From Stenomitos sp. (GTDB lineage: Bacteria; Cyanobacteriota; Cyanobacteriia; Leptolyngbyales; Leptolyngbyaceae), in assembly GCA_041744955.1 (NCBI GenBank), contig JBGTJW010000684.1:1-16324 (forward strand): a stretch of DNA of 16,324 bases, given 5' to 3'. Position numbers and translations under genes: made by a program. Shown here piece after piece: positions 1-16,324 of the stretch. The notes below the pieces were generated by a model. It made no database searches. It was not told the DNA's origin and saw only the letters and a list, made by a program, of their open reading frames with translations. Every line of letters begins with the position of its first letter. The stretch's first letter is position 1.

Positions 1-1
1 G

Positions 2-214
2 CCGTTTTACTTTTCCATTCCAGTCAACCCGATCGGCGTACCAGATTTACTCAATTCGATTTTTGGGCAAATCAACACTGCCCTCGGACAAGCGAGAAAT
101 GCTGAACAGGACAAGCGCGACAAAATTGAAGGGGTGCTGAGAAGCTTGCTGCTGCCAACGTTTGACGAAGCAGGCAGACGATCGCCAGACTCGTTTCCGC
201 CACCCAATCAGTAA
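2..214 (+). CDS. 3' end of an unidentified protein-coding gene (partial, continues left of the window)
   Basis: Frame 2 is open from the window edge for 70 codons to TAA at 212-214. The translation ...NSIFGQINTALGQARNAEQDKRDKIEGVLRSLLLPTFDEAG... looks protein-like. The overlapping minus-strand track ORFs (7..207, 47..376) are R/S/W-rich, as antisense frames usually are. No family recognised. Confidence 0.4.
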   Translation, partial: PFYFSIPVNPIGVPDLLNSIFGQINTALGQARNAEQDKRDKIEGVLRSLLLPTFDEAGRRSPDSFPPPNQ

Positions 215-404
215 GCCGCCGCCAATGCTGTCTCTGAGAACGCGCTGAGTGCGGGCTGAGAGCCTTAGCGGTATAAATTCAGGTAACTTCCTGCTGGGCT
301 TCAGAGAGGTTTCAGTGCTAGCTGCGATGCTGTGAACAGTGAATCGATCGCGGTTCCTCCAAAACGCCACAAGCACTAGCTGAATCTCTAATTAGGAGTG
401 ACTC

Positions 405-782
405 ATGAAATTAGCTTCTCTACTCACAGGCATGGCAATGGTTGGCTTGGTTACCGTTGGTGATGCGTCTTTCAAAGCGTTCAATCTTTCAAGCATTGGG
501 GTTGCTCATGCCGCAGAAACGAAGCAAGCAGGACCCACTGCTAAAGAGAAAATTGCTCTGATCACTAAAAACAAAGGACAAATTGGCAGTGGCGACCAAC
601 TCCGTCGCTTTTTCTACGGCGAACTAGACCCAGTTGGTATTCAGGTGGGTGGTGGTGGTCATGTTGTGAACCTGTACAACAAAACCAACGATGTCACTTT
701 TTCCTACTGTTCTCACTTTGATGTCGTGGTTGCCGTGAAAAAAGGAAAAGTGACGCAGTTTCTAGCCAGCGAAGTGAAATAG
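405..782 (+). CDS. small secreted hypothetical protein
   Basis: ATG is preceded by AGGAG (taattAGGAGtgactcATG). N-terminal signal peptide MKLASLLTGMAMVGLVTVG...VAHA/AE. No domain recognised. Confidence 0.6.
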   Translation: MKLASLLTGMAMVGLVTVGDASFKAFNLSSIGVAHAAETKQAGPTAKEKIALITKNKGQIGSGDQLRRFFYGELDPVGIQVGGGGHVVNLYNKTNDVTFSYCSHFDVVVAVKKGKVTQFLASEVK

Positions 783-919
783 GTCACGTAATCCAAGTGC
801 TTAACCGAAGCGGAAGTGACGATCGATCACTTTTGTATGCGCGTCTTGACCTGCTGTAAGCTGATCGCGCACCCGCGCCTATTCATCCCACTCAACTACC
901 GATTAAGGATAAAACCATC

Positions 920-1192
920 ATGAAAGCAAAGATGTTGTGTCTTGTGGCTAGTCTGGCAATAGCGGGTCTAGCGGCTTGTTCCAGTCCCCCCGCTGCTAAT
1001 CAGGCATCACCCAGCAGCGCTCCTGCCGCTAGCACCAGTCCAGATGCGATGAAAGGCGATGCCATGAAAGGTGACGCAATGCAAGGCGATGCGATGAAGG
1101 GTGACGCGATGAAAAAGGATGCTACTACGAAGGGTGACGCGATGAAGAAAGATGGTGACGCGATGAAGAAAGACGCACCGACAAAGCCATAG
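920..1192 (+). CDS. Met-rich MXKDX-type pentapeptide-repeat lipoprotein
   Basis: Signal peptide with lipobox (LAIAGLAAC/SS). The mature part carries seven [GP]DAM[KQ] units (PDAMK GDAMK GDAMQ GDAMK GDAMKK ... GDAMKK ... GDAMKK), giving 7 Met in roughly 70 mature residues. Confidence 0.8.
   Translation: MKAKMLCLVASLAIAGLAACSSPPAANQASPSSAPAASTSPDAMKGDAMKGDAMQGDAMKGDAMKKDATTKGDAMKKDGDAMKKDAPTKP
1040..1174 (+). repeat. in-frame degenerate 15-bp tandem repeat encoding the GDAMK units
   Basis: Successive units ccagatgcgatgaaa / ggcgatgccatgaaa / ggtgacgcaatgcaa / ggcgatgcgatgaag / ggtgacgcgatgaaa..., followed by two longer ggtgacgcgatgaagaaa units. Read directly from the sequence. Confidence 0.8.
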
Positions 1193-1362
1193 TCGATCGC
1201 GTCGTTGGGGTACACAACAGGTAATCAGTCTGTGCCCCGACTTAGTGCTTGGTTTCATGCCAATCAACTTGACTTTAGAGTGCGGCAGGGAGCATTGCTT
1301 GGACGTTCAGGAGCCAAGAGCCAGCAGTCGAGACCTTCTTATCACCGTTTGGAAGGATAGCA

Positions 1363-1989
1363 ATGGAAAAACTTTCGCAGAGCAAACGACGGCTGCTGCT
1401 CTATCTTGGTTTAGGAGTAGCAGGCGCAGGCGCAGCAACGGTCTTCGGCGCTGTTTCCCAAAAGGTAATCCCATCTGCATCGATCACCACCATTGATCCG
1501 TTACCTGCAAATAGTGCTGCGCCTCAAGCCGTCACGAAAAATAGTGCGATCGCTGCTAGTAAGGAACTACCAGACTTTCAGGGCATTGGTCAGTGGTTGA
1601 ATTCGGCTCCACTCACTGTGCGTGACCTTAAAGGCAGCGTCGTTTTAGTACAGTTTTGGACGTTTTCTTGCATCAACTGCCAGCGTACATTGCCTTCGAT
1701 CGTGCGATGGCATCAGCAGTACGCCGCCCAGGGGCTAAAGGTGATCGGTATCCACACGCCAGAATTTGCTTTTGAGCGTGATGCTAACAACGTCAAACAG
1801 GCGTTGCAAAAGCATCAAATTACTTACCCTGTACCGATCGACAACGACTTCAAAACCTGGAAAGCCTACAGCAATGAGTATTGGCCGCATCTCTTTCTAG
1901 CCGATCGTCAAGGGTTACTGCGCTACGACCACATTGGCGAAGGTGCATACGACACAACTGAGCAAACGATCCGCAGACTTTTGGGCTAA
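1363..1989 (+). CDS. exported thioredoxin-fold thiol:disulfide oxidoreductase (TlpA/ResA/DipZ-C-terminal-like)
   Basis: GGAAGGA lies just upstream of the ATG. The N-terminus SKRRLLLYLGLGVAGAGAA is a Tat-like RR motif or a signal anchor. CxxC motif FWTFSCINCQRTLP is followed by GIHTPEFAFE, YPVPIDND and YWPHLFLADRQG, typical of extracytoplasmic redoxins. Confidence 0.85.
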   Translation: MEKLSQSKRRLLLYLGLGVAGAGAATVFGAVSQKVIPSASITTIDPLPANSAAPQAVTKNSAIAASKELPDFQGIGQWLNSAPLTVRDLKGSVVLVQFWTFSCINCQRTLPSIVRWHQQYAAQGLKVIGIHTPEFAFERDANNVKQALQKHQITYPVPIDNDFKTWKAYSNEYWPHLFLADRQGLLRYDHIGEGAYDTTEQTIRRLLG

Positions 1990-2128
1990 TTAAACCTTTT
2001 GAGTTTTGCCTGCTGCTAAAAGCGGATTGAACAAGTTCCTTCACGTCCATTGACCACAGGAAACCCTCTGCACGGCTGCGGTCGGTCTTCAACCTTACTC
2101 TCTCGTTCCTAAGCGTTGCTGTTCAACC

Positions 2129-2818
2129 ATGAATGTTTCACTTTCAGCAGGGCTTGCCTTCCTGGGTGGTGTATTGACGGTACTTTCGCCCTGTGTCTTG
2201 CCTCTTTTGCCTGTGTTGGTGGGACGATCGCTTCAGTCTCATAAAGCGGGTCCGATCGCTCTGGTAATGGGGCTGGTCAGTGGTTTTGCAGTGATGGGCA
2301 GTTTACTTGGCTTTACCGCAAGCTGGTTTACCGGACTCGCTAATGCTTTGCGCTATGGGGCGATCGCGATCCTGTTAGCCTTAGGGCTGCTGGCAGTCTT
2401 CCCCAACTGGAGCTATCGGCTCTTCAACTATCTTCCTCTTAGCCGTTGGACAAAAGAACCCATGCGTCCTGGTCTGGTTGGTGAATTTTGGTTGGGCACG
2501 CAACTGGGTCTACTATGGACTCCCTGCGCGGGTCCTGTACTGGGTGGCATTCTAGTGTTAGCAGCCGTGCAGCATGATGTCATCAATGCGTTTGGTCTAC
2601 TGGTTGCCTACGGGATGGGTGCGGCGTTGCCCCTGCTCACGATCGCGTATGGTGGACGAGCCTGTAGCCAACGCTTGCTTGCACTTCATAGCCATAGTGC
2701 TACCTTGAGACGGGTCGGTGGTGTGATGATTGTAGTAACGGCGATCGCCATTTTGCTCGGCTGGGATATTCAGGTTCAGCTTTGGCTCTCGCCATTGTTT
2801 CCCCCTTTACCGCTTTAA
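2129..2818 (+). CDS. ccdA: CcdA/DsbD-family transmembrane thiol-disulfide electron transporter
   Basis: Polytopic membrane protein with the two hallmark membrane-embedded Cys motifs LSPCVLPLLP and WTPCAGPVLG. Confidence 0.85.
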   Translation: MNVSLSAGLAFLGGVLTVLSPCVLPLLPVLVGRSLQSHKAGPIALVMGLVSGFAVMGSLLGFTASWFTGLANALRYGAIAILLALGLLAVFPNWSYRLFNYLPLSRWTKEPMRPGLVGEFWLGTQLGLLWTPCAGPVLGGILVLAAVQHDVINAFGLLVAYGMGAALPLLTIAYGGRACSQRLLALHSHSATLRRVGGVMIVVTAIAILLGWDIQVQLWLSPLFPPLPL

Positions 2819-2848
2819 GTACAACTTCGTCACAGGACAGCACCACCC

Positions 2849-3574
2849 ATGTCAACGTCCATAACGCTTCTTTCCCGCTCCTTACGCAGATTGTCTATTC
2901 TGTCTCTAGTAGCGCTTGCCCTTATTGGCGGTGCGTTCTATCTCAGGTTGTCTCGATCGAGTGCTGAAACGCCACTGTCTATTGTGCAGGGAGCGTTTCC
3001 TGATCCGGCAGTCAATCTGCCAGCGACCCAGGCAAAGGGAATGCAGACTGCGGTTTTGGCAGGTGGTTGCTTCTGGGGCGTAGAGGCAGTGTTTGAACAT
3101 CTCAATGGCGTTTCAGATGTGGTCTCTGGCTATGCGGGCGGCAGTGCAGAGACAGCAAATTATGGGCTGGTCAGCTTTGGGCAAACGGGTCATGCCGAGT
3201 CTGTGAAAGTGACGTACGATCCCGCAAAGATTTCCTACGGACAGTTGCTCAAAGTCTACTTTGCGGTGGCGCATGACCCGACGCAGGTCAATCGGCAGGG
3301 TCCTGATGCCGGGAAACAATACCGTTCAGCTATCTTTTTTGAGAATGATGAACAGAAGCGAGTCGCGCAGGCATATGTCGATCAACTCAACCAGGCAGGC
3401 ACCTTCCGCAAGCCGATCGCCACTCAGCTAGCGCCGTTGAACGGTTTTTATGCGGCTGAAGCAAACCATCAGGACTTCATCGATCGCAATCCAAACCATC
3501 CCTATGTCGTGATTCATGACTTGCCAAAGCTCAAACAGCTCAAGGAACAGTTTGTCGCTCTTTACAAAAACTAA
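2849..3574 (+). CDS. msrA: peptide-methionine (S)-S-oxide reductase MsrA with an N-terminal export/anchor segment
   Basis: Catalytic motif GGCFWGVEAVF, then GYAGG, TGHAESVKVTYDP, HDPTQVNRQGPDAGKQYRSAIFF. A roughly 50-residue N-terminal extension holds the hydrophobic stretch LSILSLVALALIGGAFYL. The protein has only one Cys. The gene starts 30 nt after ccdA. Confidence 0.93.
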   Translation: MSTSITLLSRSLRRLSILSLVALALIGGAFYLRLSRSSAETPLSIVQGAFPDPAVNLPATQAKGMQTAVLAGGCFWGVEAVFEHLNGVSDVVSGYAGGSAETANYGLVSFGQTGHAESVKVTYDPAKISYGQLLKVYFAVAHDPTQVNRQGPDAGKQYRSAIFFENDEQKRVAQAYVDQLNQAGTFRKPIATQLAPLNGFYAAEANHQDFIDRNPNHPYVVIHDLPKLKQLKEQFVALYKN

Positions 3575-3595
3575 GTCTTCATTGGTCGCAGCTTT

Positions 3596-4198
3596 ATGGA
3601 AGCCTCTGTCCCTGCTAAACGTCAACCTAAAACACCCAGTCAGGCGATCGCGGCAAAAGCCTTTCACTGGATCAATCTTCTTAGCCTGCTGTTGATGATC
3701 ACCAGTGGGCTACGCATTTATAACGCAAACCCTGTGTTTGGCGGACGAGCAGGCTGGCATTTTCCACCGTTCCTCGTGATTGGTAACGGGTTAGCAGAAG
3801 GGCGAGACTGGCACTTCGCTATCATGTGGGTGTATGCGCTCAACCTCCTCTGCTACGGGCTTTATATTCTCATCACACGGCGCTGGCAGCATCGCTTTGC
3901 TAACAGCAATGATCTAAAAGCAGTGCAGGTCAGCCAAAACGAAAAGCGCAAAAATTATGCTCTGCATCGGTTAGTTTATACCGCGATCGTGCCCCTTTTG
4001 CTGTTGGCGATCGCCAGCGGTTTAGCGATGTACAAACCCGCTCAACTATACTGGCTAGCGGCACTTTTTGGCGATTGGCAAACTCTCCGCACGGTTCACT
4101 TCATCACAGTACCGATCGTGCTTCTCTTTACCTTTGTCCACTCGTTTCTTGCCCTCAGAGTCGGCACTTTTCGCCTTATTAAATCGATGTTTGTCTAA
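3596..4198 (+). CDS. 4-TM b-type cytochrome (b561/PhsC/HydC-like), probable quinol-oxidising membrane partner
   Basis: Four hydrophobic helices carry conserved His (FHW, WHF, LHRL, VHF..VHS). The gene starts 21 nt after msrA and ends 4 nt before the molybdoenzyme gene. The family call rests on topology and His pattern only. Confidence 0.7.
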   Translation: MEASVPAKRQPKTPSQAIAAKAFHWINLLSLLLMITSGLRIYNANPVFGGRAGWHFPPFLVIGNGLAEGRDWHFAIMWVYALNLLCYGLYILITRRWQHRFANSNDLKAVQVSQNEKRKNYALHRLVYTAIVPLLLLAIASGLAMYKPAQLYWLAALFGDWQTLRTVHFITVPIVLLFTFVHSFLALRVGTFRLIKSMFV

Positions 4199-4202
4199 AA
4201 AT

Positions 4203-4919
4203 ATGAACCTGATCCTCCCTAAACGCACGTCTCGCCGTCGGTTACTGCAATGGTCTGGTCTGTCTGGAGCGGGGCTGTTGTTGAATGGCTGCGCGTCGTC
4301 GCTGTTTGCAGAGCAGGTAGGGCAGCTTTCTGAGCCGTTAAACCAGAGCGTTGAAGCACTGATGCTGTCACAAAAAGCGGTGCCAGAATTTCCTGCGAAT
4401 GCGATCGATCCAGCGGAAAAACTCATCATCAATTCCTTTGACTTTGTGCCTAAGCTTGATCCCACCCAGTTTCGTTTGACGATCGATGGTGAGGTTGAGC
4501 GACCCCTGCAACTAAGCCTCAACGATCTACAGAAATTGCCGCTTACCACCATGAATGTTCGCCATGTTTGCGTTGAAGGCTGGGCGGCGATTGTGCAGTG
4601 GAATGGTGTGCGCTTACAGGAACTAGCGCTGTTGGCGCAGCCCAAAGCCGATGTTCGCTACGTCTATTTCAAATCTGCCGATGGTTACTACGAAAGCTGG
4701 GATCTTGCTTCTGCGGTGCATCCCCAAACGCTGATGGCATACCAGCGCAACGGGCAGCCGCTCTCAGTTGCGAACGGTGCGCCGCTGCGTCTCGCCTCAC
4801 CCATCAAACTGGGCTACAAGTTAAGTAAATGGGTGACTCAAATCACCTTTTTGAGCCAGTTAACGCCAATGAAAGGCTACTGGGAAGACCAGGGCTATGA
4901 ATGGTTTGCTGGACTTTAG
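4203..4919 (+). CDS. Tat-exported SUOX-fold molybdopterin oxidoreductase (YedY/MsrP-like, short form)
   Basis: Start placed at ATG 4203 (MNLILPKRTSRRRLLQWSGLSGAGLLLNGC), which gives a twin-arginine motif and a possible lipobox LNGC. The track start at 4068 overlaps the cytochrome b gene in another frame. RHVCVEGWAAIVQWNGVRL matches the Mo-ligand Cys region of sulfite-oxidase-fold enzymes, and GAPLRLASPIKLGYKLSKW is also typical. Length 238 aa. Confidence 0.85.
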   Translation: MNLILPKRTSRRRLLQWSGLSGAGLLLNGCASSLFAEQVGQLSEPLNQSVEALMLSQKAVPEFPANAIDPAEKLIINSFDFVPKLDPTQFRLTIDGEVERPLQLSLNDLQKLPLTTMNVRHVCVEGWAAIVQWNGVRLQELALLAQPKADVRYVYFKSADGYYESWDLASAVHPQTLMAYQRNGQPLSVANGAPLRLASPIKLGYKLSKWVTQITFLSQLTPMKGYWEDQGYEWFAGL

Positions 4920-4994
4920 CGCGTGACTAAAACGATTTCTGAGCCGGATCTACAGACTATCTCAATGACGTTCACAGCAGGTTTGAGCAGTCAC

Positions 4995-5705
4995 TTAAAG
5001 CCTTTGTAAAAGGTTCAAGCCGTGGGTATCGGTGCCACAGGTGTTAAGTAGATTGAAGGTATCACTGAGTCGGTGGACTTGTCTGGTTTGCTCAGGGCTG
5101 GGCTGCCAGGGTTGAGAGTTGTTGTAGGCATAGTACGTTTCAACGCCATCAATGCCAAAACGAGCCACTTCGGGGATTAACACTTCGGGCGATCGCTTGT
5201 AACGTGCTGGATGTGCCAACACTGCCAAACCACCAGCAGCATGAATAGCGCTGATCACTCGTTCAGCCTTTGCGTCGTCTCCCATCGGTGCATGGCGCTG
5301 TAAATAAGGCTGCATAGAAGGGCTTTCTGGGTTAAACGCATAACCGAGGATATGTACTTCTATGTCTAGCAGTTGGGATGTGATTTCTACACCAACCCAA
5401 AGTTGAGGCAAGGCACGATCGCCCGCTGGCTCTAACGGCTGTTCATCGAGCCAACGCTGTACAAGGCGATAACCGTTAACCGAATGGTGGTCAGTGATGG
5501 CAAACCCTTGCAGCCCGATCGCGATCGCCTGCTGCACCAATAGCTCTGGCTGCAACTGTCCGTCAGAGTTTACCGTGTGCATATGAAAATTAAACGTTCT
5601 GGGGCAACTGCCAGCGTGAATCTGCTCAAACACGTGCCGCAGCGCTACAGCGTTCTGTGCAGCAGGGATGGACGAATGTGACGCTGGAGCCAGTTTGACA
5701 GACAT
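4995..5705 (-). CDS. PHP-domain metal-dependent phosphoesterase (TrpH/YciV-like)
   Basis: PHP metal-binding motifs FHMHTVNSDG and ITDHH, later VLAHP and GTDTHG. Start moved to ATG 5705 because GAGG sits 5 nt upstream; the track start is 5747. Confidence 0.8.
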   Translation of the reverse strand: MSVKLAPASHSSIPAAQNAVALRHVFEQIHAGSCPRTFNFHMHTVNSDGQLQPELLVQQAIAIGLQGFAITDHHSVNGYRLVQRWLDEQPLEPAGDRALPQLWVGVEITSQLLDIEVHILGYAFNPESPSMQPYLQRHAPMGDDAKAERVISAIHAAGGLAVLAHPARYKRSPEVLIPEVARFGIDGVETYYAYNNSQPWQPSPEQTRQVHRLSDTFNLLNTCGTDTHGLNLLQRL

Positions 5706-5909
5706 AGGTGCCTCAAAAAGAGATGGGCTTGTTTTGCTTACATACATATCTTAACTGCTGTCGATCGAGAGTTTGAGCGATCGGGTTGACCACAGACAGC
5801 CGCACAAAAATTAGCAGCAAAGAGAATTGCTGAATGGTTGCCTCGCCTGACAACTACTTAGCAGTCCTAGCTTTAGAAAGCGATGGGTACAGCCCAGTTT
5901 TGCAAATTT

Positions 5910-6024
5910 GCCCTCAGCCCCTAGCCCTTTCTCGCAAAACGAGAGAAGGAGAGCCGATTCAAAGCCCCTCTTCCGTTTCGTAGAGGGCTGAAAGCCTTGC
6001 GGCATCAAAGAAAAGGGTGAGGGC
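5910..6024. repeat. 115-bp palindromic intergenic element, possibly a copy of a dispersed cyanobacterial small repeat
   Basis: Outer inverted repeat GCCCTCA (5910-5916) / TGAGGGC (6018-6024). Next pair CCCTTT (5925-5930) / AAAGGG (6012-6017). Inner hairpin AGCCC(C)TCT-N10-AGAGGGCT (5963-5989). The spurious minus ORF reads ...SFCEKGLGAEG..., resembling the WEKGLG-type pseudo-peptides I recall from cyanobacterial repeat elements. Dispersal cannot be tested within one window. Confidence 0.3.
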
Positions 6025-6055
6025 TACAAAGGTAGAATGTACTCAAAGCGATCGA

Positions 6056-6970
6056 CTAAGCAGACGGTTCTCTTGTCGCAGGTTTCGCTGACGGCACACT
6101 CTTACGGTTCAATCCACCCAAAAACATCGGGACGAATTTTTCTATAAACGCTTGGGGATCGCGCTTCCATGCCCGTTGAGCGATGTCAATGCGGGTTAGC
6201 TGCAAGTCGGGTGCCAGCAAAGTTTGGGGCAACCGTTCCATCAAGTATTGGGGACGCTCCCAAACTGACATTGTGTTGGCAATGTCTAGCAGATTGGACA
6301 CGCGACGTAGTTCCGCTCCCAACGTGATATCCATACCGGATTCAAAGGCAGCTTGCTCGATCGCCGAGTACCGTTGCTTTGCCGTTTCTACCTTCTGACG
6401 ATTTTCTGGGCTTTGATCCGCTAGTTTCGCTAGCCAGCGGTTGCCCCAGCGCACGTGTCCTGCTTCTTCAGGAAAGATCCGCTCGATCGTCTCACGAATT
6501 TTGATGTTTTCTTCGGTTTGCGGTGCCTGCTTCAGCGCATAGATGTGCGCCGAGAAATACTCACAGCCGCGCTTTTCGGTGACGTTAATGGCTGCCAGGG
6601 TTGAAATCAGAAACCCATCCAGGTCATTGTCTGCGTCATGGAGTTCTGCATCCAGCAGGCGCTCAAATTCCTGAATGTAGGAGGAACCCGGCGGGGTGCC
6701 GACGCTGGAACCAAGGTCTACCAGTAAATCGGTGAGCCACATGGCATGACGGGCTTCATCAGAAATATGCCGCGACAAGTCTTTAATCAATTCAGGAGAT
6801 TTGCCATCAAGCTGCTCAATCAAATTGGTGAGATCTTTGCAGCTTCGTTGTTCGCTGTAGCGGTAGCGGTTGAGCGTGATGAGGTGAATTTCACGATCGC
6901 GCACAACCTGACCCAGAATCTCACGTGCGCCTAGAGCTTTACTAAGTTTGCGGGGGTAAGCAACAGTCAT
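6056..6970 (-). CDS. ferritin-like di-iron carboxylate domain protein (family not identified)
   Basis: Start set at ATG 6970; the track start 7078 is a TTG extension. Two ExxH motifs (SDEARHAMW and PEEAGHVRW) are each preceded by a Glu-bearing helix (YSEQ, TEKRGCEYF), which is the four-helix di-iron signature. Confidence 0.7.
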   Translation of the reverse strand: MTVAYPRKLSKALGAREILGQVVRDREIHLITLNRYRYSEQRSCKDLTNLIEQLDGKSPELIKDLSRHISDEARHAMWLTDLLVDLGSSVGTPPGSSYIQEFERLLDAELHDADNDLDGFLISTLAAINVTEKRGCEYFSAHIYALKQAPQTEENIKIRETIERIFPEEAGHVRWGNRWLAKLADQSPENRQKVETAKQRYSAIEQAAFESGMDITLGAELRRVSNLLDIANTMSVWERPQYLMERLPQTLLAPDLQLTRIDIAQRAWKRDPQAFIEKFVPMFLGGLNRKSVPSAKPATREPSA

Positions 6971-7074
6971 TGTTTTCTCTTGTTGGGTGTTCTTATCTGT
7001 TGAGTCGTTATTGACGATCGTAGTAATCGTGCCAAGCAGCTTCAATAAGCTGATGCTAAATCTGAAGCAACAGT

Positions 7075-7221
7075 TCAATGGGCAAAGGGTTTTGCTTCGC
7101 GCTGTAACAGTGCAACGAAGAGATTGTTCAACTGAGTGCTAACCGCTTTATGTGCCAGACCAAAATAGCTTTTACCTTCCTGGAAAGCCTGGTACGCCAG
7201 CTTTGTTAAAGTGTCAGGCAT
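7075..7221 (-). CDS. possible 48-aa small protein (MPDTLTKLAYQAFQEGKSYFGLAHKAVSTQLNNLFVALLQREAKPFAH)
   Basis: Open frame between the glnA terminator and the ferritin-like gene. The track version starts at TTG 7296 and the first ATG is at 7221. No SD and no recognised family. Confidence 0.25.
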   Translation of the reverse strand: MPDTLTKLAYQAFQEGKSYFGLAHKAVSTQLNNLFVALLQREAKPFAH

Positions 7222-7373
7222 TGGATGTAAGAAAATACGATCGACTGTAAACGATTGTAACGAATCCCTTCCGTAAATGCCGCAGAGGGTGAACAAATCT
7301 GCCTTTTGGTAGGAAGACGATCGCTGGATTTACATCCACCTAACGCATACAGACAACCCGTACGAGACCTGGA

Positions 7374-7449
7374 TAAGAAAGAGCGGCGATCGCGCCCTGA
7401 ACCTCAAACGTTACCCGCAGGTAAAAGAGGTAGAGGAGCGATCGCCGCT
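7374..7449 (-). terminator. glnA terminator-like extended hairpin built on two HIP1 copies
   Basis: 12-bp perfect inverted repeat AGCGGCGATCGC (7382-7393) / GCGATCGCCGCT (7438-7449). Inner pairing ACCTC..TTACC-TGCG-GGTAA..GAGGT. On the minus strand it is followed by CTTTCTT. It begins about 47 nt after the glnA stop. Confidence 0.45.
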
Positions 7450-7495
7450 AGATGGTAGATGTGTCGTTACTGGTTGTTACCAACAGTTGTACTGT

Positions 7496-8932: not shown

Positions 8933-9250
8933 GTATTACTCCTTATTGCGGTACTGTCTCTAAAGTGGGAGGAACGAAGAACGGTAGAAATCATTTGAGA
9001 GCAGCAGTGAAAGCGTTGCATCCTAAGGTTTGGCGCTGAAACGTCTGATCGGTCGACCGACCGATCTACAGCTTCAAACGCTCAGACACAGAACAATGAG
9101 CTTGAACCGAGACAGAAGCCTACAGTCTTAATCAGCTTTCAACCAAAGCCACAAACTTCTCCTGCGTTTCTAAAGCCAATGAAAGGATTGTCAGGAAGAG
9201 GCTGCCTTAGCAAACCCTCTCCGGGCTTAGAGCTTACTTGTATCTGAATC

Positions 9251-9293
9251 ATCCTAGAGATTGGCTTGAGTCACTTTTGTATCAACTGCTACA
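9251..9293 (-). promoter_or_regulatory. NtcA-activated (class II) promoter directed toward glnA
   Basis: Perfect TGTA-N8-TACA (tGTAtcaactgcTACa, 9278-9293). On the minus strand, exactly 22 nt downstream of the site, lies TAGGAT (9256-9251), which fits the -10 pattern TAN3T. Predicted TSS is near 9244, about 310 nt upstream of the glnA ATG. On the plus strand no TAN3T sits at the equivalent spacing. Confidence 0.7.
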
Positions 9294-9691
9294 AAGTGTT
9301 GCCTTACCAGTCGAGACTTAAGTGCAGGTTAAGGGTGTAGCGTGCAGACGAACGTGCAGAGTGACTGCTCTAACGTAATTTTAAGAACCTGTAACACTTG
9401 ATGTTTACAATTGCAACATGGCACGATTCTGTTTCATGCAATGGTAAACTTGACCGTACGCTCAGACTCAAAGAACCGTCAGTTCTACGATTTGAGCCGT
9501 ATGTGACTAGAGATCATACGCCTAAAAATGAGCGTGAATGGATCAATCACTGTTGTTGTCCACGGGGCATAGCTTACTTTGAATCTGTTGATCGCGATGA
9601 GCCTTTGGGCTTGCCATTGAGCAAGATTTTTGTCGTCGAACGAGTCAACCATAACTAAGAACATATTAAGGATCGTTGGGAGAAGAGTTTC

Positions 9692-10201
9692 ATGCGTGAT
9701 GCAGTGACGAGTTTGATTAGAAATTACGATATTACAGGTCGTTACCTCGATCGCAATGCTATTGATAGCCTCAAAGCGTATTTTGATACGGGTATTGCCA
9801 GAGTGCAGGCATCGGCAGTCATCAATGCGAATGCAGCGGCGATCGTCAAACAGGCAGGTTTGCAATTGTTTGACGAACTGCCAGAGTTGATTCGTCCCGG
9901 TGGCAATGCTTACACCACTCGTCGCTATGCCGCTTGCCTGCGCGATTTAGACTACTACCTGCGCTACGCGACCTACGCCCTTGTTGCAGGCGATACGGAT
10001 GTGTTGGATGAGCGGGTGCTAGAAGGGCTACGCGAAACCTACAATTCGCTGGGTGTACCATCTGGACCCACCGTACGCGGCATCCAAATCTTGAAGGCGA
10101 TCGCGCAAGAAACCGTCGCTGAAGCTGGCATCACCAACGCGGCGTTTATCGATCAACCGTTTGATTACATGGCGCGTGAATTGAGCGAGAAGAATATTTA
10201 G
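9692..10201 (+). CDS. apcF: allophycocyanin beta-18 subunit (phycobilisome core)
   Basis: 169 aa, collinear with ApcF as I remember it: MRDAVTSLIRNYDITGRYLDRNAIDSLKAYF, PELIRPGGNAYTTRRYAACLRDLDYYLRYATYALVAG, LRETYNSLGVP, QPFDYMARELSE. GGGAGAAGAG lies upstream of the ATG. Confidence 0.95.
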   Translation: MRDAVTSLIRNYDITGRYLDRNAIDSLKAYFDTGIARVQASAVINANAAAIVKQAGLQLFDELPELIRPGGNAYTTRRYAACLRDLDYYLRYATYALVAGDTDVLDERVLEGLRETYNSLGVPSGPTVRGIQILKAIAQETVAEAGITNAAFIDQPFDYMARELSEKNI

Positions 10202-10234
10202 TTTGCCGAGAGTTCACATCCTAAACTCAGTTGT

Positions 10235-10276
10235 AAAGAGGTGAGGCGCGATCGTGTCTCACCTCTTTCTTTGTTT
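10235..10276 (+). terminator. rho-independent terminator of apcF
   Basis: 11-bp perfect stem AAAGAGGTGAG (10235-10245) / CTCACCTCTTT (10258-10268), a 12-nt loop, then the T-rich tail cTTTgTTT. Confidence 0.7.
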
Positions 10277-10290
10277 CGTTCTGTAGCAAA
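10266..10290. repeat. left copy of the direct repeat flanking the R-M cassette
   Basis: TTTCTTTGT (10266-10274), 9 nt, then TAGCAAA (10284-10290). Compare the right copy at 12253-12279. Confidence 0.4.
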
Positions 10291-10316
10291 TAACTCTTCA
10301 GCCAAAACACTGTTGA

Positions 10317-11372
10317 TTAAATAACAGTATCAAGAAAAGTTAGCTGAGTTGGTGGTTTCACTCGACGTAAATGACTACAGCGACCAGTATTTTGATACTC
10401 TTGAATATCAACTAAAATCTTAGATGCTAATGCTCTACTAAAATTAACAGGAACAGCGTTTCCCACCATCTTATAGCCAGTGGAAATATTATCGTACTTA
10501 AGAATAAAGTCATCTGGAAACGTTTGTATCCTTGCACATTCTCGAACTGAAAGCCTGCGGTATGGCTTAGGAGAGCTTGGATCAAAAATTCGCTTATCTT
10601 GTTCAACAAAAATCATTTTATTGGCTTGAGGGTGAATCGGTGCATGCCGTCCGCCTGCCTGAATAGTAAACGAGGGTTCATCCCAACTTCTAACGCGATT
10701 TCTAGACATATAAATGCTAGAAAAACCCATATCTAAATACTCATGGTTAGCAACTAAAGCCGAATAATTTATTGCCTGCCGACTGGCAACAGGTTCTATA
10801 AGGCTTAAGTCATAAACAGTATCCCTCAAAGTTGGAATTTTGTGATTTTCTTGTGGGAAGCTAAAGGTGCCACCCATATCTTCTCTATAACCCACGATAA
10901 TAACTCTTTGTCTATCCTGAGGTACATTAAAATACTTAGCATTCAGTAGTTTATAAGCTACTTCATAACCTGCATCTTTAAACATATATAGAATATTAGA
11001 AAAAGCATAAGTATGCCTCTCTGAAAGAATACCGCTTACATTTTCAGCTACAAAAAATAGAGGTTTTTTTGCTTGTACAATTCTGATGTATTCATAGAAA
11101 AGTTGCCCTCTAGAATCATTAATGCCTCGCCCAGCGCCTGCCTCGCTCCAGCTTTGGCAGGGCGGTCCGCCGATAATGCCAATGCAATTAGGTATTTCTG
11201 ATGATGGAATGTCTTGTATCGCTCTTCTATCTAGTGTCGTTTCGGTATGATTAAGCTCATAAGTTTCCCAAATTGATTTATCGTTTTCATTTGCCCAATC
11301 GACCTGAAAACCTGCTAGAGAAAAGCCTAAATCTAGACCACCACAACCAGAAAATAAAGATACAACATTCAT
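10317..11372 (-). CDS. type II DNA (cytosine-5)-methyltransferase, M.HaeIII-like (predicted GGCC)
   Basis: C5-MTase motifs in canonical order: I FSGCGGLDLGF, IV GGPPCQSWS, VI FFVAENVSG, VIII QDRQRVIIVG, X GNAVPV. The variable region and flanks (NHEY..SSIYMSRNRVRSWDEPSFTIQAGGRHAPIHPQA, YRRLSVRECARIQTFPDDF) are collinear with my recollection of M.HaeIII. Specificity is inferred, not proven. Confidence 0.93.
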   Translation of the reverse strand: MNVVSLFSGCGGLDLGFSLAGFQVDWANENDKSIWETYELNHTETTLDRRAIQDIPSSEIPNCIGIIGGPPCQSWSEAGAGRGINDSRGQLFYEYIRIVQAKKPLFFVAENVSGILSERHTYAFSNILYMFKDAGYEVAYKLLNAKYFNVPQDRQRVIIVGYREDMGGTFSFPQENHKIPTLRDTVYDLSLIEPVASRQAINYSALVANHEYLDMGFSSIYMSRNRVRSWDEPSFTIQAGGRHAPIHPQANKMIFVEQDKRIFDPSSPKPYRRLSVRECARIQTFPDDFILKYDNISTGYKMVGNAVPVNFSRALASKILVDIQEYQNTGRCSHLRRVKPPTQLTFLDTVI

Positions 11373-11389
11373 AACGTGAGAAAACTAAC

Positions 11390-12238
11390 CTATCTTCTAT
11401 AGCTAATCATTTTTGCGGGAAGAATTTCAACCGGATTATTAGGCGATTTAATTGTGATGCTCTGAATATTAAAGCCTGGTAAAGTTATATTCTCGATCGC
11501 TTTCCTACTTTCTTCTGCAAAGGAAGCATATTTGCTCTCTTTCATTAAAGCAATAATTTGAAAATTTGCATTAGGAGTGTACCCAGAGTCTACATAACTA
11601 AAAGCTCTAGCAGGATTTTCAATGCCCCACATCCCTCTGATTCTTAAATAGGTTATGCCTAAAGGATCTACCTTATTCACTCTACCTAGCTCTTTCGTTA
11701 CGGTGAACTCGACTCCTTGAATTTCAGCAATTCCATTGATTAAGCCATTTCTAGTCTTCTCATAAATTTCTTTGTCTGCGGCATAGCAGTCACCGTAAAT
11801 TAGCCACAGAAGCTTTAACTTTTTTTGATTGATGATGCCGATCGCATAAATAATATCTTTTTCCGTCCAAGCCTCACAATTTCGGCAGGCGCTAATGAGC
11901 ATTGGATTATCAGAAAATAGCTTTGCTTTTGGGTAAGAGCTATTGAGCGCAATTTGAGAGCCGTACGATTCAATTTTCTTTACTTCTACTGCGTCGCCGC
12001 TTTTGATCATTAGATCGGGCGGGTTATTTTGGTTGCCAGCGTATGAAAAGACTTCGGAATACTTCAAAAGTCTCTCATTTTCATCACCTGCGTTCACGGT
12101 GCCTGCAAAAGCATCTTTAATGAAAACTTCAAGGGCATCACCTACACCATTAATTCTATTTTTCCCTTTATAGTGGCTAACTAAATCTGAAATTGGATTG
12201 TGAACAATATTTTGTATAGCTTCTAGGAGATTGCTCAT
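11390..12238 (-). CDS. type II restriction endonuclease, R.NgoPII-like (predicted GGCC)
   Basis: Ends 17 nt upstream of the methyltransferase gene on the same strand. PD-(D/E)XK core NPPDLMIKSGDAVEVKK. Blocks ALNSSYPKAKL, EKDIIYAIGI and ELGRVNKVDPLGITYLRIRGMWGIENP match my memory of the NgoPII family, as does the size (282 aa). The assignment is from memory, not a search. Confidence 0.8.
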   Translation of the reverse strand: MSNLLEAIQNIVHNPISDLVSHYKGKNRINGVGDALEVFIKDAFAGTVNAGDENERLLKYSEVFSYAGNQNNPPDLMIKSGDAVEVKKIESYGSQIALNSSYPKAKLFSDNPMLISACRNCEAWTEKDIIYAIGIINQKKLKLLWLIYGDCYAADKEIYEKTRNGLINGIAEIQGVEFTVTKELGRVNKVDPLGITYLRIRGMWGIENPARAFSYVDSGYTPNANFQIIALMKESKYASFAEESRKAIENITLPGFNIQSITIKSPNNPVEILPAKMISYRR

Positions 12239-12252
12239 AGTAGATGTTGCCG

Positions 12253-12279
12253 TTTCTTTGTAGGGTAGAGTATAGCAAA
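12253..12279. repeat. right copy of the direct repeat flanking the R-M cassette
   Basis: TTTCTTTGT (12253-12261), 11 nt, then TAGCAAA (12273-12279). It overlaps a TATACT -10-like hexamer on the minus strand (12274-12269) upstream of the endonuclease gene. Confidence 0.4.
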
Positions 12280-12542
12280 AGGATTAAGTAGGAGCCGTTT
12301 TCCTGGAGTTCCGTTATTATCCCGCTTCGATTGAGCAAGAGTGGCAGCCAACCCGGGAAGAGCAGGGTGTAAATCTGAAACCAGATGAAGTGAAACGCGC
12401 TGTTGATGTTTCCTTATTCGTCGGATAGCCTGCACATGAAGCACGTACGCAATAACGGATGTTACTGGCACGGGTGCAGCGGAAGTTTGAGGCTGACCAG
12501 AACCGCTAAAATAGGGTGAGAGTCCCAAGCCGTAAAGTTTCT

Positions 12543-14459
12543 ATGACCGTGCGATCGTCCGTTGACTTTTTGGATGCCTTTGATGTGGTGGTGGTCGGAG
12601 CCGGACACGCTGGCTGTGAGGCAGCATTGGCAACGGCGCGGCTGGGCTGCCGCACACTCTTGCTCACCTTAACGTTAGACAAAATCGCGTGGCAGCCGTG
12701 CAATCCTGCGGTGGGTGGTCCGGCGAAGTCTCAACTGGTGCATGAAGTGGATGCGCTGGGCGGCGAAATCGGCAAAATGGCAGACCGCACCTACCTGCAA
12801 AAGCGTGTGCTGAATGCGTCACGCGGTCCGGCGGTATGGGCGCTACGGGCGCAGACGGACAAGCGCGAATATGCGGCTGTCATGAAAACGATCGTGGAAA
12901 ACCAGTTAAACCTGACGATCCGCGAAGGCATGGCAACGGATCTGGTTCTGGGCGAAAACAATGAAATCATTGGTGTGCAAACCTACTTTGGCGTAGCGTT
13001 TCAGTGCAAAGCCGTCGTGTTGACCACAGGCACCTTTTTAGGCGGAAAAATTTGGGTCGGCAATACGTCGATGGCAGCCGGACGCGCGGGAGAATTTGCG
13101 GCTGTTGGGATGACTGAAACGCTCAATCGGCTGGGCTTTGAAACGGGACGGCTGAAAACGGGGACACCTGCCAGGGTCGATCGGCGCTCCGTCGATTTCA
13201 CAAACCTGGAACCTCAACCCGGTGATGCAGACGTGCGCTGGTGTAGCTTCGACCCTAAAGCATGGGTGGTACGGGAGCAAGTGCCCTGTTACCTGACACG
13301 TACGACTGCCGAAACTCATCGCATCATTCGCGAAAACCTCCATCTATCACCTGTTTATGGTGGTTGGGTAGATGCCAAAGGTCCACGCTATTGCCCCAGC
13401 ATTGAAGACAAAATCGTCCGCTTTGCTGATAAGGAAAGCCATCAGATTTTCATTGAGCCAGAAGGACGCGATACACCAGAGCTTTATATTCAGGGCTTTT
13501 CAACGGGCTTGCCAGAAGCGATTCAGTTGCAAATGCTGCGATCGCTCCCCGGATTGGAACACTGCGCCATGCTGCGTCCTGCCTATGCCGTTGAATATGA
13601 CTATCTGCCTGCAACGCAGTGCTACCCCACCCTGATGACCAAAGCGGTTGAAGGGTTATTCTGCGCTGGGCAAATCAATGGCACGACGGGCTATGAAGAA
13701 GCGGCGGCACAGGGACTTGTAGCAGGCATTAATGCGGCTCGGTTGGTGCAAAAGCAGGAGATGATTATTTTCCCGCGTGAGCAAAGCTATATTGGCACCT
13801 TGATTGACGACCTTTGCACAAAAGACTTGCGCGAACCCTACCGAGTGCTGACTTCACGATCGGAGTATCGCCTCCTGCTGCGATCGGACAATGCGGATCA
13901 ACGCCTCACGCCACTGGGTCGAGAAATTGGGCTGATTGACGATCGTCGTTGGCATTTATTCACCCATAAACAAGAACGGATCGTTGCTGAAAAAGAGCGG
14001 CTGCATGAAACTCGTGTGAAAGAACATGATGAACTGGGTCAAAGAATTGCAGCGCACACGCAGCAGGCAATTAAAGGTTCGCTGACTTTAGCCGATTTGC
14101 TGCGGAAGCCAGGGTTTCACTACGCCAATTTAGAACAGTTTGGGTTGGGCAATGCAGAGTGCGATCGCGCCGAAAAAGAAGGGGCTGAAATTGACATTAA
14201 ATATGCCGGGTATATTCAACGGCAACAGCACCAAATTGACGCGATCGTCCGTCAAGAACATCGCAAACTACCACCCGATTTAGACTACAGTGCGATCGCC
14301 ACACTCTCTAAAGAATCCCGCGAAAAGCTGGCGAAAGTGCAGCCTCTCACAATTGGACAGGCAACTCGCATTGGGGGTGTCAATCCTGCTGATGTGAATG
14401 CGTTACTTGTATACCTCGAAATCCAGGCACGTCAGCAAGCGGAAGCGGGAGTTTTATGA
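12543..14459 (+). CDS. mnmG: tRNA uridine 5-carboxymethylaminomethyl modification enzyme MnmG (GidA)
   Basis: Start set at ATG 12543; the track start 12516 is GTG. FAD motif [17 protein letters not shown], then [67 protein letters not shown] and [14 protein letters not shown] are all classic MnmG blocks. Confidence 0.96.
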
Positions 14460-14460
14460 C

Positions 14461-14532
14461 GGCGTTTACTGTCATGATGTAGGTCGTTTCATCAAGAATG
14501 TGCTGTAGATATTCATGAGCCGACGGAGACAT
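14461..14532 (-). pseudogene. 5' remnant of a HEPN/DUF86 toxin gene (only about 20-24 codons retained)
   Basis: ATG at 14532-14530 overlaps the end of the MNT reading frame by 20 nt, the usual operon geometry. MSPSAHEYLQHILDETTYIM matches the DUF86 N-terminal YLQ.IL....I pattern. The frame then runs antisense into the mnmG 3' end with no further resemblance. Confidence 0.5.
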
Positions 14533-14913
14533 ACTCGACCTCATCTAAAATATGTGAACCAATATAAGGACTCAATGACTCGACAGTAATGAACGTCAGT
14601 TCGGGCTAAGAACGCTGATACGGTGCTGATCGGCTGAAACGTCGCAAACACGTTGGCGAAGACTTGACATCGACAACGGTGGCATAAGGGTTTCAGCTTA
14701 TCCCGAACTCAGGTTAATGAGGTCAACTGCTCTGCCAAAAAGATCTTCTAGAAAAAAGGATAGGGGTATAAAGTTATCAAATGTTTTCTGAGCTGGCTCA
14801 AAAGTAACCAAGATATCAACATCACTTTGAGGATGAATTGCGGTGTCACGGGCAAACGAGCCGAAGAAACATCGGTTGTCCTTACGATCCGAGTGAATGA
14901 GGGGCAGGGTTTT
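14513..14913 (-). pseudogene. MNT-type nucleotidyltransferase (antitoxin of a HEPN/MNT pair), interrupted by a MITE and lacking a usable start
   Basis: A frame absent from the ORF track reads ...DNRCFFGSFARDTAIHPQSDVDILVTFEPAQKTFDNFIPLSFFLEDLFGRAVDLIN.. and meets a stop at 14698-14700. The C-terminal part ..TVESLSPYIGSHILDEVEYVSVGS* resumes at 14586-14513 in another frame. The GS..R...D.D motif is the minimal nucleotidyltransferase signature. Only 15 codons separate an upstream in-frame TGA (14916-14914) from FFGS, and they hold no ATG/GTG/TTG. Confidence 0.65.
14593..14714. mobile_element. 122-bp MITE-like insertion with 18-bp imperfect TIRs and a 6-bp target-site duplication
   Basis: Left end ACGTCAGTTCGGGCTAAG (14593-14610). 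The right end CTTATCCCGAACTCAGGT (14697-14714) has the reverse complement ACCTGAGTTCGGGATAAG, 15/18 identical to the left end. Flanking direct repeat TAATGA at 14587-14592 and 14715-14720. Second internal inverted pair GCTGAAAC (14633-14640) / GTTTCAGC (14690-14697). No coding capacity. Confidence 0.6.
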
Positions 14914-16324
14914 TCAGTCCGTCTGGCACCTCTTTGCCCTTGTATCGACTCAAACGCTTGTTGAAGTAACGCCATACTACCTGACCCAAAATGTAGGGTT
15001 GAAACAACGCGATCGAGGGTTTAAGCAAGTGCAGCACTTCCATAAACGTACGGTAGACCCTGGCTCGATCAACGATTAGTTCCAGCACTTGATCCCAATA
15101 CCAATTCAGAAACTCAGTCACTGCATTAATCGGCTTGCCCTGCGTGTTGCGGTAACGGTAGTCTGCACCCGTTGCCACTAACCAAGCCTCCTGATGTGCC
15201 TTGGCTAATTGTTGTTGCAGGCGGCGGGTGTGGTGCTCAAGTTGGTTAATTCCGTGGTGCTGAAAGAATTGATCTAACAGCACGGCTTCAAGTGCAGCCA
15301 CGGTCATGGCTTGTCCATAGGTGGGATTCAGCGAGCAACCTGCATGTCCCACCACAATAAAATGAGCGGGTGCGTGGGAGCGCCGTGCATAATCGCGCAA
15401 GCGATTTTCGTTGCCGTAATGGGCATAGATGGGCGTAAGGGGTGTGCCTTGTTCAATTACCTCTGCCAAAATTGGGGTGGGTAGACTGCGCGCAAAGGCT
15501 AAAAAGCCAGCTTCATCAGTGGGAGGATAATCGCGATCGCCGCCGACCAAACTGACAATCCAACGCCTGCTATGGGGATTGGAGCGATCGCCCTCAATGG
15601 GAAAAATGACTCCACCGCGTTGCCGCTGAGGCGGGGCAGATGGCACAAACAGCATTTTCCAATCTACAACTAGATCGGCTGGAGGCTGATAGATGCGGGC
15701 AACATAGCCCACAAACGCATCAACTTCTGTTTCGGGTGGTGGCTCATAGCCCAAGGCACTCAACCATTGCGGCGCGTGGGAGGCTTTGCCACTCGCATCT
15801 ACAATCAGATCGGCATAGAGTGACTCAGTGGCTTGAGAGGTCGCACCTGCATGCTGATGCAGCGATACCCCCACAATTTTTGTGTGCTCTGTATCTGTTA
15901 ACAAGCCGGTAACGCTAGTTCCTTGCAAAAATTGCACCCTGGGAAAGGCTGCTAGGCGACGGCGAATCCCCCAGTCCAATAAGTCTCGGCTACAGGTAAA
16001 GAGCCGCAAGTCTGAGGCACACCGAGTCGTCCACCCAGCGGCGGTCAAAAACGCCATGTCTTGCAGACTGTCTACCACGATCGCGCCCTCCGCCACTAGG
16101 TCTGCTTGAAGCCCTGGGAAGAACTGTTCTAAAATTTGTTGCCCCCGGAGCATGAGGCTGTGTGGAAAGCGAGAGTGAGGCAATCCCTTACGAGGCGAGG
16201 GCTGATCCGGATAAAGATCACGTTCTACAAGGGTGACGCGATCGAAATGGTTTGCCAGGGATCGACTGACTAACAGTCCTGCAAAACTACCGCCAATGAC
16301 TAACGCATGAGTCTTGTGTCGCAT
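14882..16324 (-). CDS. FAD-dependent oxidoreductase/monooxygenase-like protein
   Basis: 480 aa. The ATG lies at the window edge (16324-16322) and the dinucleotide-binding motif HALVIGGSFAGLL..VTLVERD follows immediately, so the N-terminus is probably complete. Later blocks LIVDASG and GHAGCSLNPTYGQAMTVA fit the flavoprotein monooxygenase fold. Substrate unknown. Confidence 0.8.
   Translation of the reverse strand: MRHKTHALVIGGSFAGLLVSRSLANHFDRVTLVERDLYPDQPSPRKGLPHSRFPHSLMLRGQQILEQFFPGLQADLVAEGAIVVDSLQDMAFLTAAGWTTRCASDLRLFTCSRDLLDWGIRRRLAAFPRVQFLQGTSVTGLLTDTEHTKIVGVSLHQHAGATSQATESLYADLIVDASGKASHAPQWLSALGYEPPPETEVDAFVGYVARIYQPPADLVVDWKMLFVPSAPPQRQRGGVIFPIEGDRSNPHSRRWIVSLVGGDRDYPPTDEAGFLAFARSLPTPILAEVIEQGTPLTPIYAHYGNENRLRDYARRSHAPAHFIVVGHAGCSLNPTYGQAMTVAALEAVLLDQFFQHHGINQLEHHTRRLQQQLAKAHQEAWLVATGADYRYRNTQGKPINAVTEFLNWYWDQVLELIVDRARVYRTFMEVLHLLKPSIALFQPYILGQVVWRYFNKRLSRYKGKEVPDGLKNPAPHSLGS

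Follow-up and report, generated by a model that had tools for sequence, protein, structure and literature searches.

Avoidance of palindromes in genomes with Type II R-M (restriction-modification) systems was reportedly described by Gelfand and Koonin in 1997 and by Rocha and co-workers in 2001. Genomes avoid the sites of orthodox Type II systems, the more so for long-resident systems, and the avoidance may outlast a system that has been lost (Rusinov et al, 2015, PMC4687349). We describe here a footprint of this known kind, restriction-site avoidance next to an R-M pair of known families, but of exceptional degree: in a 16,324-bp stretch of cyanobacterial DNA (contig JBGTJW010000684.1 of Stenomitos sp., hereafter the window), the tetranucleotide GGCC occurs once, and the window carries an R-M cassette, composed of an endonuclease (R) and a methyltransferase (M), that is predicted to recognize this very sequence.

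The nearest described counterparts of the cassette are NgoPII of Neisseria gonorrhoeae and MthTI of pFV1, both of which cleave GGCC. They have in common with it a PF09521 endonuclease (46-49.5% identity) followed on the same strand by a methylase forming 5-methylcytosine (m5C), whereas the present cassette is chromosomal, resides in a cyanobacterial host and has no adjoining T/G-mismatch repair gene: neither vsr nor mig adjoins it in the window, and no equivalent of either was found beside the cyanobacterial cassettes examined. On pFV1 (NC_001336, positions 9636-12662), the R-M pair lies near the thymine/uracil-DNA glycosylase gene mig, which presumably repairs m5C deamination. M itself aligns over its full length with M.HaeIII (PDB 1DCT, 3UBT), including the variable target-recognition region and all catalytic motifs, but it counts 351 aa instead of 324-331, with a short C-terminal extension, and its partner belongs to the NgoPII family. 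Note that another GGCC methylase, the orphan M.Ssp6803II/Alr1052 type, is widespread in the phylum (PMC6560206, PMC4390886). It has the same target and blocks HaeIII, but makes N4-methylcytosine (m4C), is of the MethyltransfD12 family (PMC4390886) and has no endonuclease partner. This orphan GGm4CC methylase is common in cyanobacteria and GGCC is frequent in Synechocystis (PMC6560206); the presence of a methylase often accompanies site deficiency in the phylum (PMC4390886). No orphan GGm4CC methylase gene is present in the window.

We counted GGCC exactly in the window, which comprises 16,324 bp of the 16,483-bp source contig and has a GC content of 49.5%; the counts thus describe one contig of the organism. 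A first-pass annotation, made from the sequence alone, had found a lone site at 1883-1886 by manual scan, and the computational count agrees, yielding this one site and not many. Base composition predicts 61.2 sites, a first-order model 60.1 and a maximal-order Markov model 58.5, the last giving an observed/expected ratio (O/E) of 0.017 (Poisson P(X ≤ 1) ~2e-24). In the Markov-corrected comparison with the other 4-bp palindromes that the annotation had proposed, GGCC comes out lowest; indeed, it ranks at the bottom of all 136 strand-merged 4-mers, the runner-up having an O/E of 0.63. We also shuffled synonymous codons in 1000 rounds over the 15 genes, preserving the proteins and the codon usage of each gene. 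The 13 kb of coding DNA, with its one GGCC, would be expected to hold 50.0 ± 5.4 sites (minimum 34; z = -9), and the 3.3 kb of non-coding DNA holds none, against 7.6-10.5 expected.

The depletion is specific to GGCC and not common to palindromes of the same composition, the O/E being 0.017 for GGCC, 0.64 for CCGG, 0.83 for GCGC and 0.90 for CGCG. CCGG, which the annotation had chosen as its same-composition contrast, is far more frequent than GGCC, but it is an imperfect, non-neutral control, being itself about twofold depleted: the window contains 26 CCGG against 40.8 from the Markov model, and its coding part 23 against 45.5 from the codon shuffle (z = -4.4). The annotation had put the number at about twenty; among its example positions, four are correct as given (3005, 4944, 7671 and 13549), two are one nucleotide too high (9222 and 16146, for sites at 9221 and 16145), and at 12346 there is none, the closest CCGG lying at 12353. 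The hexamer RCCGGY occurs once in the window, with 4.0 expected; RCCGGY deficits have been tied to the DmtD orphan methylase (Elhai 2015). The R-M pair (10317-12238) contains no GGCC, as the annotation had stated, with merely ~3-5 expected.

The assignment of the pair to GGCC, likewise predicted in the first-pass annotation, agrees with its homology to both the NgoPII family and M.HaeIII. R matches the Pfam model RE_NgoPII (PF09521) with E = 1.6e-116 and 388.4 bits (cut-off 25), its residues 2-264 covering positions 1-262 of the 262 in the model; no NCBIfam model matches R. Its 5971 homologues have their nearest members in filamentous cyanobacteria. R is 49.5% identical to the pFV1 endonuclease, annotated as NgoPII family and presumably MthTI, and shares 46% identity with the product of the N. 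gonorrhoeae locus, presumably NgoPII. M aligns with M.HaeIII (1DCT) in one continuous stretch, residues 1-318, that includes the target-recognition region (E = 1.4e-104), compared with E ~3e-29 (2.5e-29) for M.HhaI, for which the best stretch in wild-type chains spans just residues 3-186. The motifs FSGCGG (I), GGPPCQSW (IV), AENV (VI), QDRQRV (VIII) and GNAVPV (X) are all seen in the 1DCT alignment. Both open reading frames are intact, and the order of R then M, with a gap of 5-32 bp, recurs in 40 of 41 related loci. The GGCC specificity of the pair is thus well supported by homology. Because R shares 46-49.5% identity with the N. gonorrhoeae and pFV1 enzymes and has a methylase partner, it would be predicted to cleave GG^CC and to be blocked by GGm5CC.

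What remains of GGCC in the window is dictated by protein sequence. The single site falls on a Trp-Pro dipeptide (WP) of a thioredoxin-like (Trx-like) protein, and Trp-Pro is the sole dipeptide that needs GGCC, because Trp has one codon and all Pro codons begin with CC. These two residues are invariant in 120 of 120 Trx-like homologues (63-100% identity), and in two relatives with hardly any other GGCC, Tildeniella nuda and 'Lyngbya' HA4199-MV5, the orthologous site persists as TGGCCT. The trinucleotides GGC (278) and GCC (270) are common in the window and are avoided solely where their overlap would give GGCC. The Gly codon GGC is accordingly used before a C-starting codon in 0 of 67 cases, while elsewhere it is the preferred Gly codon (117 of 248; Fisher P = 2e-16), and the Ala codon GCC follows a G-ending codon in 0 of 90 cases against 90 of 340 elsewhere (Fisher P = 4e-11). 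The window therefore sits at the proteome-allowed minimum of GGCC sites, i.e. textbook avoidance at its limit. Moreover, 812 four-mers in the window are one substitution away from GGCC, and a neutral flux would rebuild ~68 sites; GGCC removal must therefore be ongoing. The depletion has the appearance of selection against GGCC as such: it affects non-coding DNA as well as synonymous positions in each of the three frames and halts only at the obligate Trp-Pro, which supports the reading of GGCC avoidance as a restriction footprint proposed in the first-pass annotation. As in other cases of recognition-site avoidance (Rusinov et al, 2015, PMC4687349), a Markov-corrected palindrome deficit is found beside cognate endonuclease and methylase genes, and in relatives too; the difference lies in its extent, 0.017 in the window compared with 0.31 around NgoPII in N. 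gonorrhoeae, 0.63 for pFV1 and 0.34-0.52 for other cassette-bearing cyanobacteria.

We propose that long selection by R-M systems, through self-restriction, explains the purge of GGCC, and we give this explanation a probability of roughly 0.8. A filamentous cyanobacterial lineage would have been long exposed to GGCC-cutting Type IIP enzymes, of which the resident cassette would be the current one. Protection by methylation would be imperfect, with lapses after replication or repair, on arrival or loss of a system, or under an imbalance between R and M, so that each chromosomal GGCC would carry a small risk of double-strand break. Selection would then purge existing GGCC and block new ones, and the endpoint would be the state seen in the window, where all GGCC removable synonymously or in non-coding DNA are gone and the invariant Trp-Pro is left. 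This supposes GGCC activity of both R and M, with self-restriction as the selective agent acting effectively on each site. In a standard mutation-selection model, zero removable sites where ~57 are expected would correspond to a stationary ratio below 0.05 and to |2Ne*s| of ~3 or more per site.

The most serious competitor of this explanation, possible but rather doubtful in our judgment, reverses the direction of causation for the resident cassette: earlier GGCC systems, perhaps lost or different, would have purged the genome, and the cassette would be a later import into target-poor DNA. The relatives bear on it first. The host is a Leptolyngbyaceae/Oculatellaceae-like cyanobacterium, whose closest MnmG match (87% identical) is found in Leptolyngbyaceae and Phormidesmis, and the closest named Trx-like homologues are those of Tildeniella, Stenomitos and 'Lyngbya' HA4199-MV5. 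Using MnmG as a query, we fetched 80 cyanobacterial loci (81-87% identity). All 80 are GGCC-poor (O/E < 1, median ~0.37), and none has the cassette in the 10-kb flanks of mnmG; restricting the set to loci no shorter than 10 kb gives a median of 0.38, with 79% below 0.5. CCGG in these loci is near expectation. The most depleted are the closest relatives (O/E 0.03-0.05). Tildeniella nuda, which may or may not carry the cassette, has 4 GGCC against 80 expected (0.05), and 'Lyngbya' HA4199-MV5 has 3 against 93 at its trx locus (0.032) and an O/E of 0.039 at its R-M locus on another contig; since two unlinked loci are equally depleted, the depletion in this strain is genome-scale. A further relative has an O/E of 0.41 over a 5.26-Mb contig. 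This pattern fits the conclusions of Rusinov et al (2015, PMC4687349), whose traces of lost systems also lend weight to the later-import scenario.

The origin of the cassette is the second line of evidence. The cassette is an import, compositionally foreign to its surroundings, with a GC content of 38% and a GC content at third codon positions (GC3) of 0.26-0.35, against 51-52% and ~0.52 in the flanking genes. It has also been relocated. Its nearest homologues (82% identity in aa, ~80% in nt) come from three assemblies, one of them 'Lyngbya' sp. HA4199-MV5, and stand divergently beside an intact leuS gene. DNA homology of ~80% links positions 12483-10339 of the window to 9735-11899 of the HA4199-MV5 locus (L081) and extends into locus L083. 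Because this homology runs on for 180 bp into a leuS fragment, the cassette brought part of its previous neighbour along when it came to lie between apc and mnmG. The fragment, a scar of the earlier site, has lost its start codon and acquired a frameshift, deletions and a stop, with the region of the HMGH motif still recognizable. At the other edge of the cassette, where the L081 homology ends at 10339, a hairpin is likely to act as a bidirectional terminator (Table 1).

Foreign composition, the leuS remnant and the GGCC-poor mnmG loci thus all speak for import into an already depleted genome. Against it, the genomes with an 82%-identical cassette are as extremely depleted as the window (O/E 0.04-0.10), and the divergence of the cassette (82%) is near that of the host Trx-like protein (78%), which is compatible with a long association within the clade. 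The heavy decay of the leuS remnant implies that the move is not recent. Homologous cassettes keep a GC content of 33-41% while that of their hosts ranges over 31-53%; low GC thus belongs to the element itself and does not serve as a clock. We therefore read the footprint as that of the long history of GGCC enzymes in the lineage, with the cassette as their present representative.

Several observations nevertheless count against selection by self-restriction as we propose it. The cassette is foreign and relocated, so that its residence time may be short or long, and depletion is also seen in relatives that may or may not harbour a cassette. Conversely, a cassette may be present without strong depletion: Microcoleus vaginatus (CP031705) has an O/E of 0.52, and values near 1.0 occur among the metagenome loci. 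An orphan GGm4CC methylase, if present in this organism, would lessen self-restriction and weaken the selective agent. Finally, E. coli K-12, which to our knowledge encodes no GGCC R-M system, is moderately depleted over 200 kb (O/E 0.56). Moderate GGCC deficits are common and not diagnostic alone. The first-pass annotation had taken the depletion as independent support for the specificity of the cassette; this part of its argument fails, because E. coli K-12 and the relatives' loci without a nearby cassette are depleted as well. Avoidance mirrors the history of a lineage and not merely its present cassette, which limits the use of k-mer deficits for assigning R-M specificities. Regarding the other cassette carriers, Lyngbya aestuarii has an O/E of 0.34, and the metagenome contigs with NgoPII homologues, counted from 10 kb upwards, have a median of 0.33 (range 0 to 1.0, 70% below 0.5). 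The intact-looking cassettes of M. vaginatus and L. aestuarii themselves contain 2 and 1 GGCC, respectively.

Table 1. Features of the window, with coordinates, strand and the evidence or context for each
Feature	Position	Strand	Evidence or context
Chromosomal DNA of a Leptolyngbyaceae/Oculatellaceae-like cyanobacterium	1..16324	.	Core genes trx-like, dsbD-like, msrA, glnA, apc-type phycobiliprotein, mnmG (Pfam)
Trx-like thioredoxin-fold gene (AhpC/TSA, Redoxin) holding the surviving site	1363..1989	+	Pfam PF00578, PF08534, PF13905
Sole GGCC	1883..1886	+	TGG-CCG, Trp174-Pro175 of the Trx-like protein; no synonymous removal possible
Hairpin with a 15-bp stem and CGATCG at its loop	10235..10268	+	Terminator scan; apc and M converge on it
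M, M.HaeIII-like C5-cytosine methyltransferase, predicted to make GGm5CC	10317..11372	-	PF00145, E = 3e-88; TIGR00675 dcm; GC 38.2%, GC3 0.26
R-M spacer, 17 bp	11373..11389	-	R precedes M on the same strand, as in homologous cassettes
R, NgoPII-family Type IIP restriction endonuclease, predicted GGCC cutter	11390..12238	-	PF09521; GC 38.0%
64-bp leader/promoter region 5' of R, putative TATACT -10-like hexamer	12239..12302	-	Near-identical to L081 9937-10000, R-leuS intergenic region
Decayed leuS 5' fragment	12303..12483	+	tblastn with L081 LeuRS residues 1-29 and 37-55
mnmG (gidA), host gene flanking the cassette	12516..14459	+	Pfam GIDA, E = 3e-161; query for the 80 related loci

A second alternative, which we consider very improbable, is that GGm5CC sites eroded by deamination of the inner C to T, with no selection by cleavage. 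The methylase does belong to the m5C class, and no vsr or mig gene adjoins the cassette, unlike the situation on pFV1. If deamination were the driver, GGTC/GACC should be in excess; they are instead depleted, with a Markov O/E of 0.80 and 69 occurrences where the codon shuffle gives 88.5 (z = -2.8). What is in excess is TGCC/GGCA (193 against 123.5 expected in coding DNA, z = +8.3) and AGCC/GGCT (z = +3.3), both of which are outer-position changes. Consistently, the Gly codon GGT is chosen less before C (22 of 67, against 81 of 131 of the non-GGC codons elsewhere; P = 1.5e-4). Deamination in a G-GCC context would alter the amino acid by either route, and occupancy there is still 0 of 90. Where MnmG orthologues carry GGCC, at 16 alignment columns, the window shows varied replacements, with GGTC in just 3. 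Nor can mutation alone keep 812 one-step neighbours at zero occupancy. We thus rejected m5C deamination as the main cause, on the lack of GGTC/GACC enrichment, the empty G-GCC contexts and the varied MnmG replacements; it is a minor contributor at most. It is by the codon-context pattern that the two causes, site selection and mutational decay of m5C, can be told apart. Missing GGCC seem to be replaced mostly by TGCC/GGCA, and GCA makes up 47 of the 90 Ala codons that follow a G-ending codon.

Least credible of all is an artefact of composition or codon usage, or a non-defence constraint such as a structural or regulatory signal on GGCC: the twofold deficit of CCGG and the absence of several further palindromes could be read as a general oligonucleotide skew, but nulls that keep trinucleotides, codon usage and amino acids all give 50-60 sites, the abundant GGC and GCC are shunned only when juxtaposed as GGCC, and the effect is equal in all frames and in non-coding DNA.

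If selection against GGCC is as strong as proposed above, its effect might extend to the one dipeptide that cannot do without the site. We examined WP statistics in crudely called long open reading frames of all fetched loci (L001-L177) and of the window, loci that are phylogenetically related. WP is the most under-represented of the 400 dipeptides, and its observed/expected ratio falls from 0.47 through 0.42, 0.37 and 0.21 to 0.20 over bins of GGCC O/E from >0.6 down to <0.1 (Poisson regression, P = 0.007). The control dipeptides PW, WA and [FY]P are flat with respect to GGCC O/E (P > 0.8), and in E. coli K-12 the WP ratio is 0.92 (rank 143 of 400). The WP count can, by arithmetic, never exceed the GGCC count. 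Since GGCC depletion spans all frames and non-coding DNA, the cause runs from DNA to protein. No replacement of WP was caught among orthologues: MnmG orthologues have no WP anywhere, and in the seven-gene trx region of four genomes there is only the invariant WP. The signal thus rests on bulk statistics. Whether GGCC restriction pressure in filamentous cyanobacteria has reached protein sequence, a defence enzyme then constraining protein evolution, we regard as evenly poised. If the Trp-Pro result is true proteome-wide, the recognition sequence of a restriction enzyme can shape amino-acid sequence space. Pro-Gly, which is always encoded by CCNGG, is lower in loci with GGCC O/E below 0.15 than in those at 0.4 or more (0.71 and 1.00, respectively; z = -4.1), and may be a second dipeptide constrained by a recognition site. 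Neither cyanobacterial GGCC avoidance nor an effect on dipeptides turned up in our literature search, which was of incomplete coverage; this is a weak sign of novelty. In practical terms, DNA meant for engineering this clade should be GGCC-free or pre-methylated with M.HaeIII.

Regarding the surroundings of the cassette, we sought a cassette-free apc-mnmG junction in the relatives and found none, mnmG synteny not being conserved in the 80 loci; glnA-apc occurs near mnmG in one related locus alone (L044), 7 kb away. The trx-operon loci of three relatives diverge 3' of the molybdopterin gene. An open reading frame of 97 aa (orf97, 12235-12528, minus strand) was considered as a controller or vsr gene and rejected: it has no Pfam match, lies antisense to the leuS remnant and is spurious. 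Neither an Rfam scan of the window nor a megablast search against E. coli gave any match.

Besides GGCC, other palindromes are rare in the window: GRCGYC is absent with 11.5 expected (P = 1e-5), as are CTGCAG (8.4 expected), TGCGCA (5.3) and CAGCTG (4.0), while GWGCWC and CYCGRG occur twice each, with 10.1 and 7.2 expected, respectively. These deficits suggest exposure to R-M specificities that the window does not encode. GATC (124 occurrences), CGATCG (64) and the HIP1 sequence GCGATCGC (15) are abundant in the window, as is typical of cyanobacteria.

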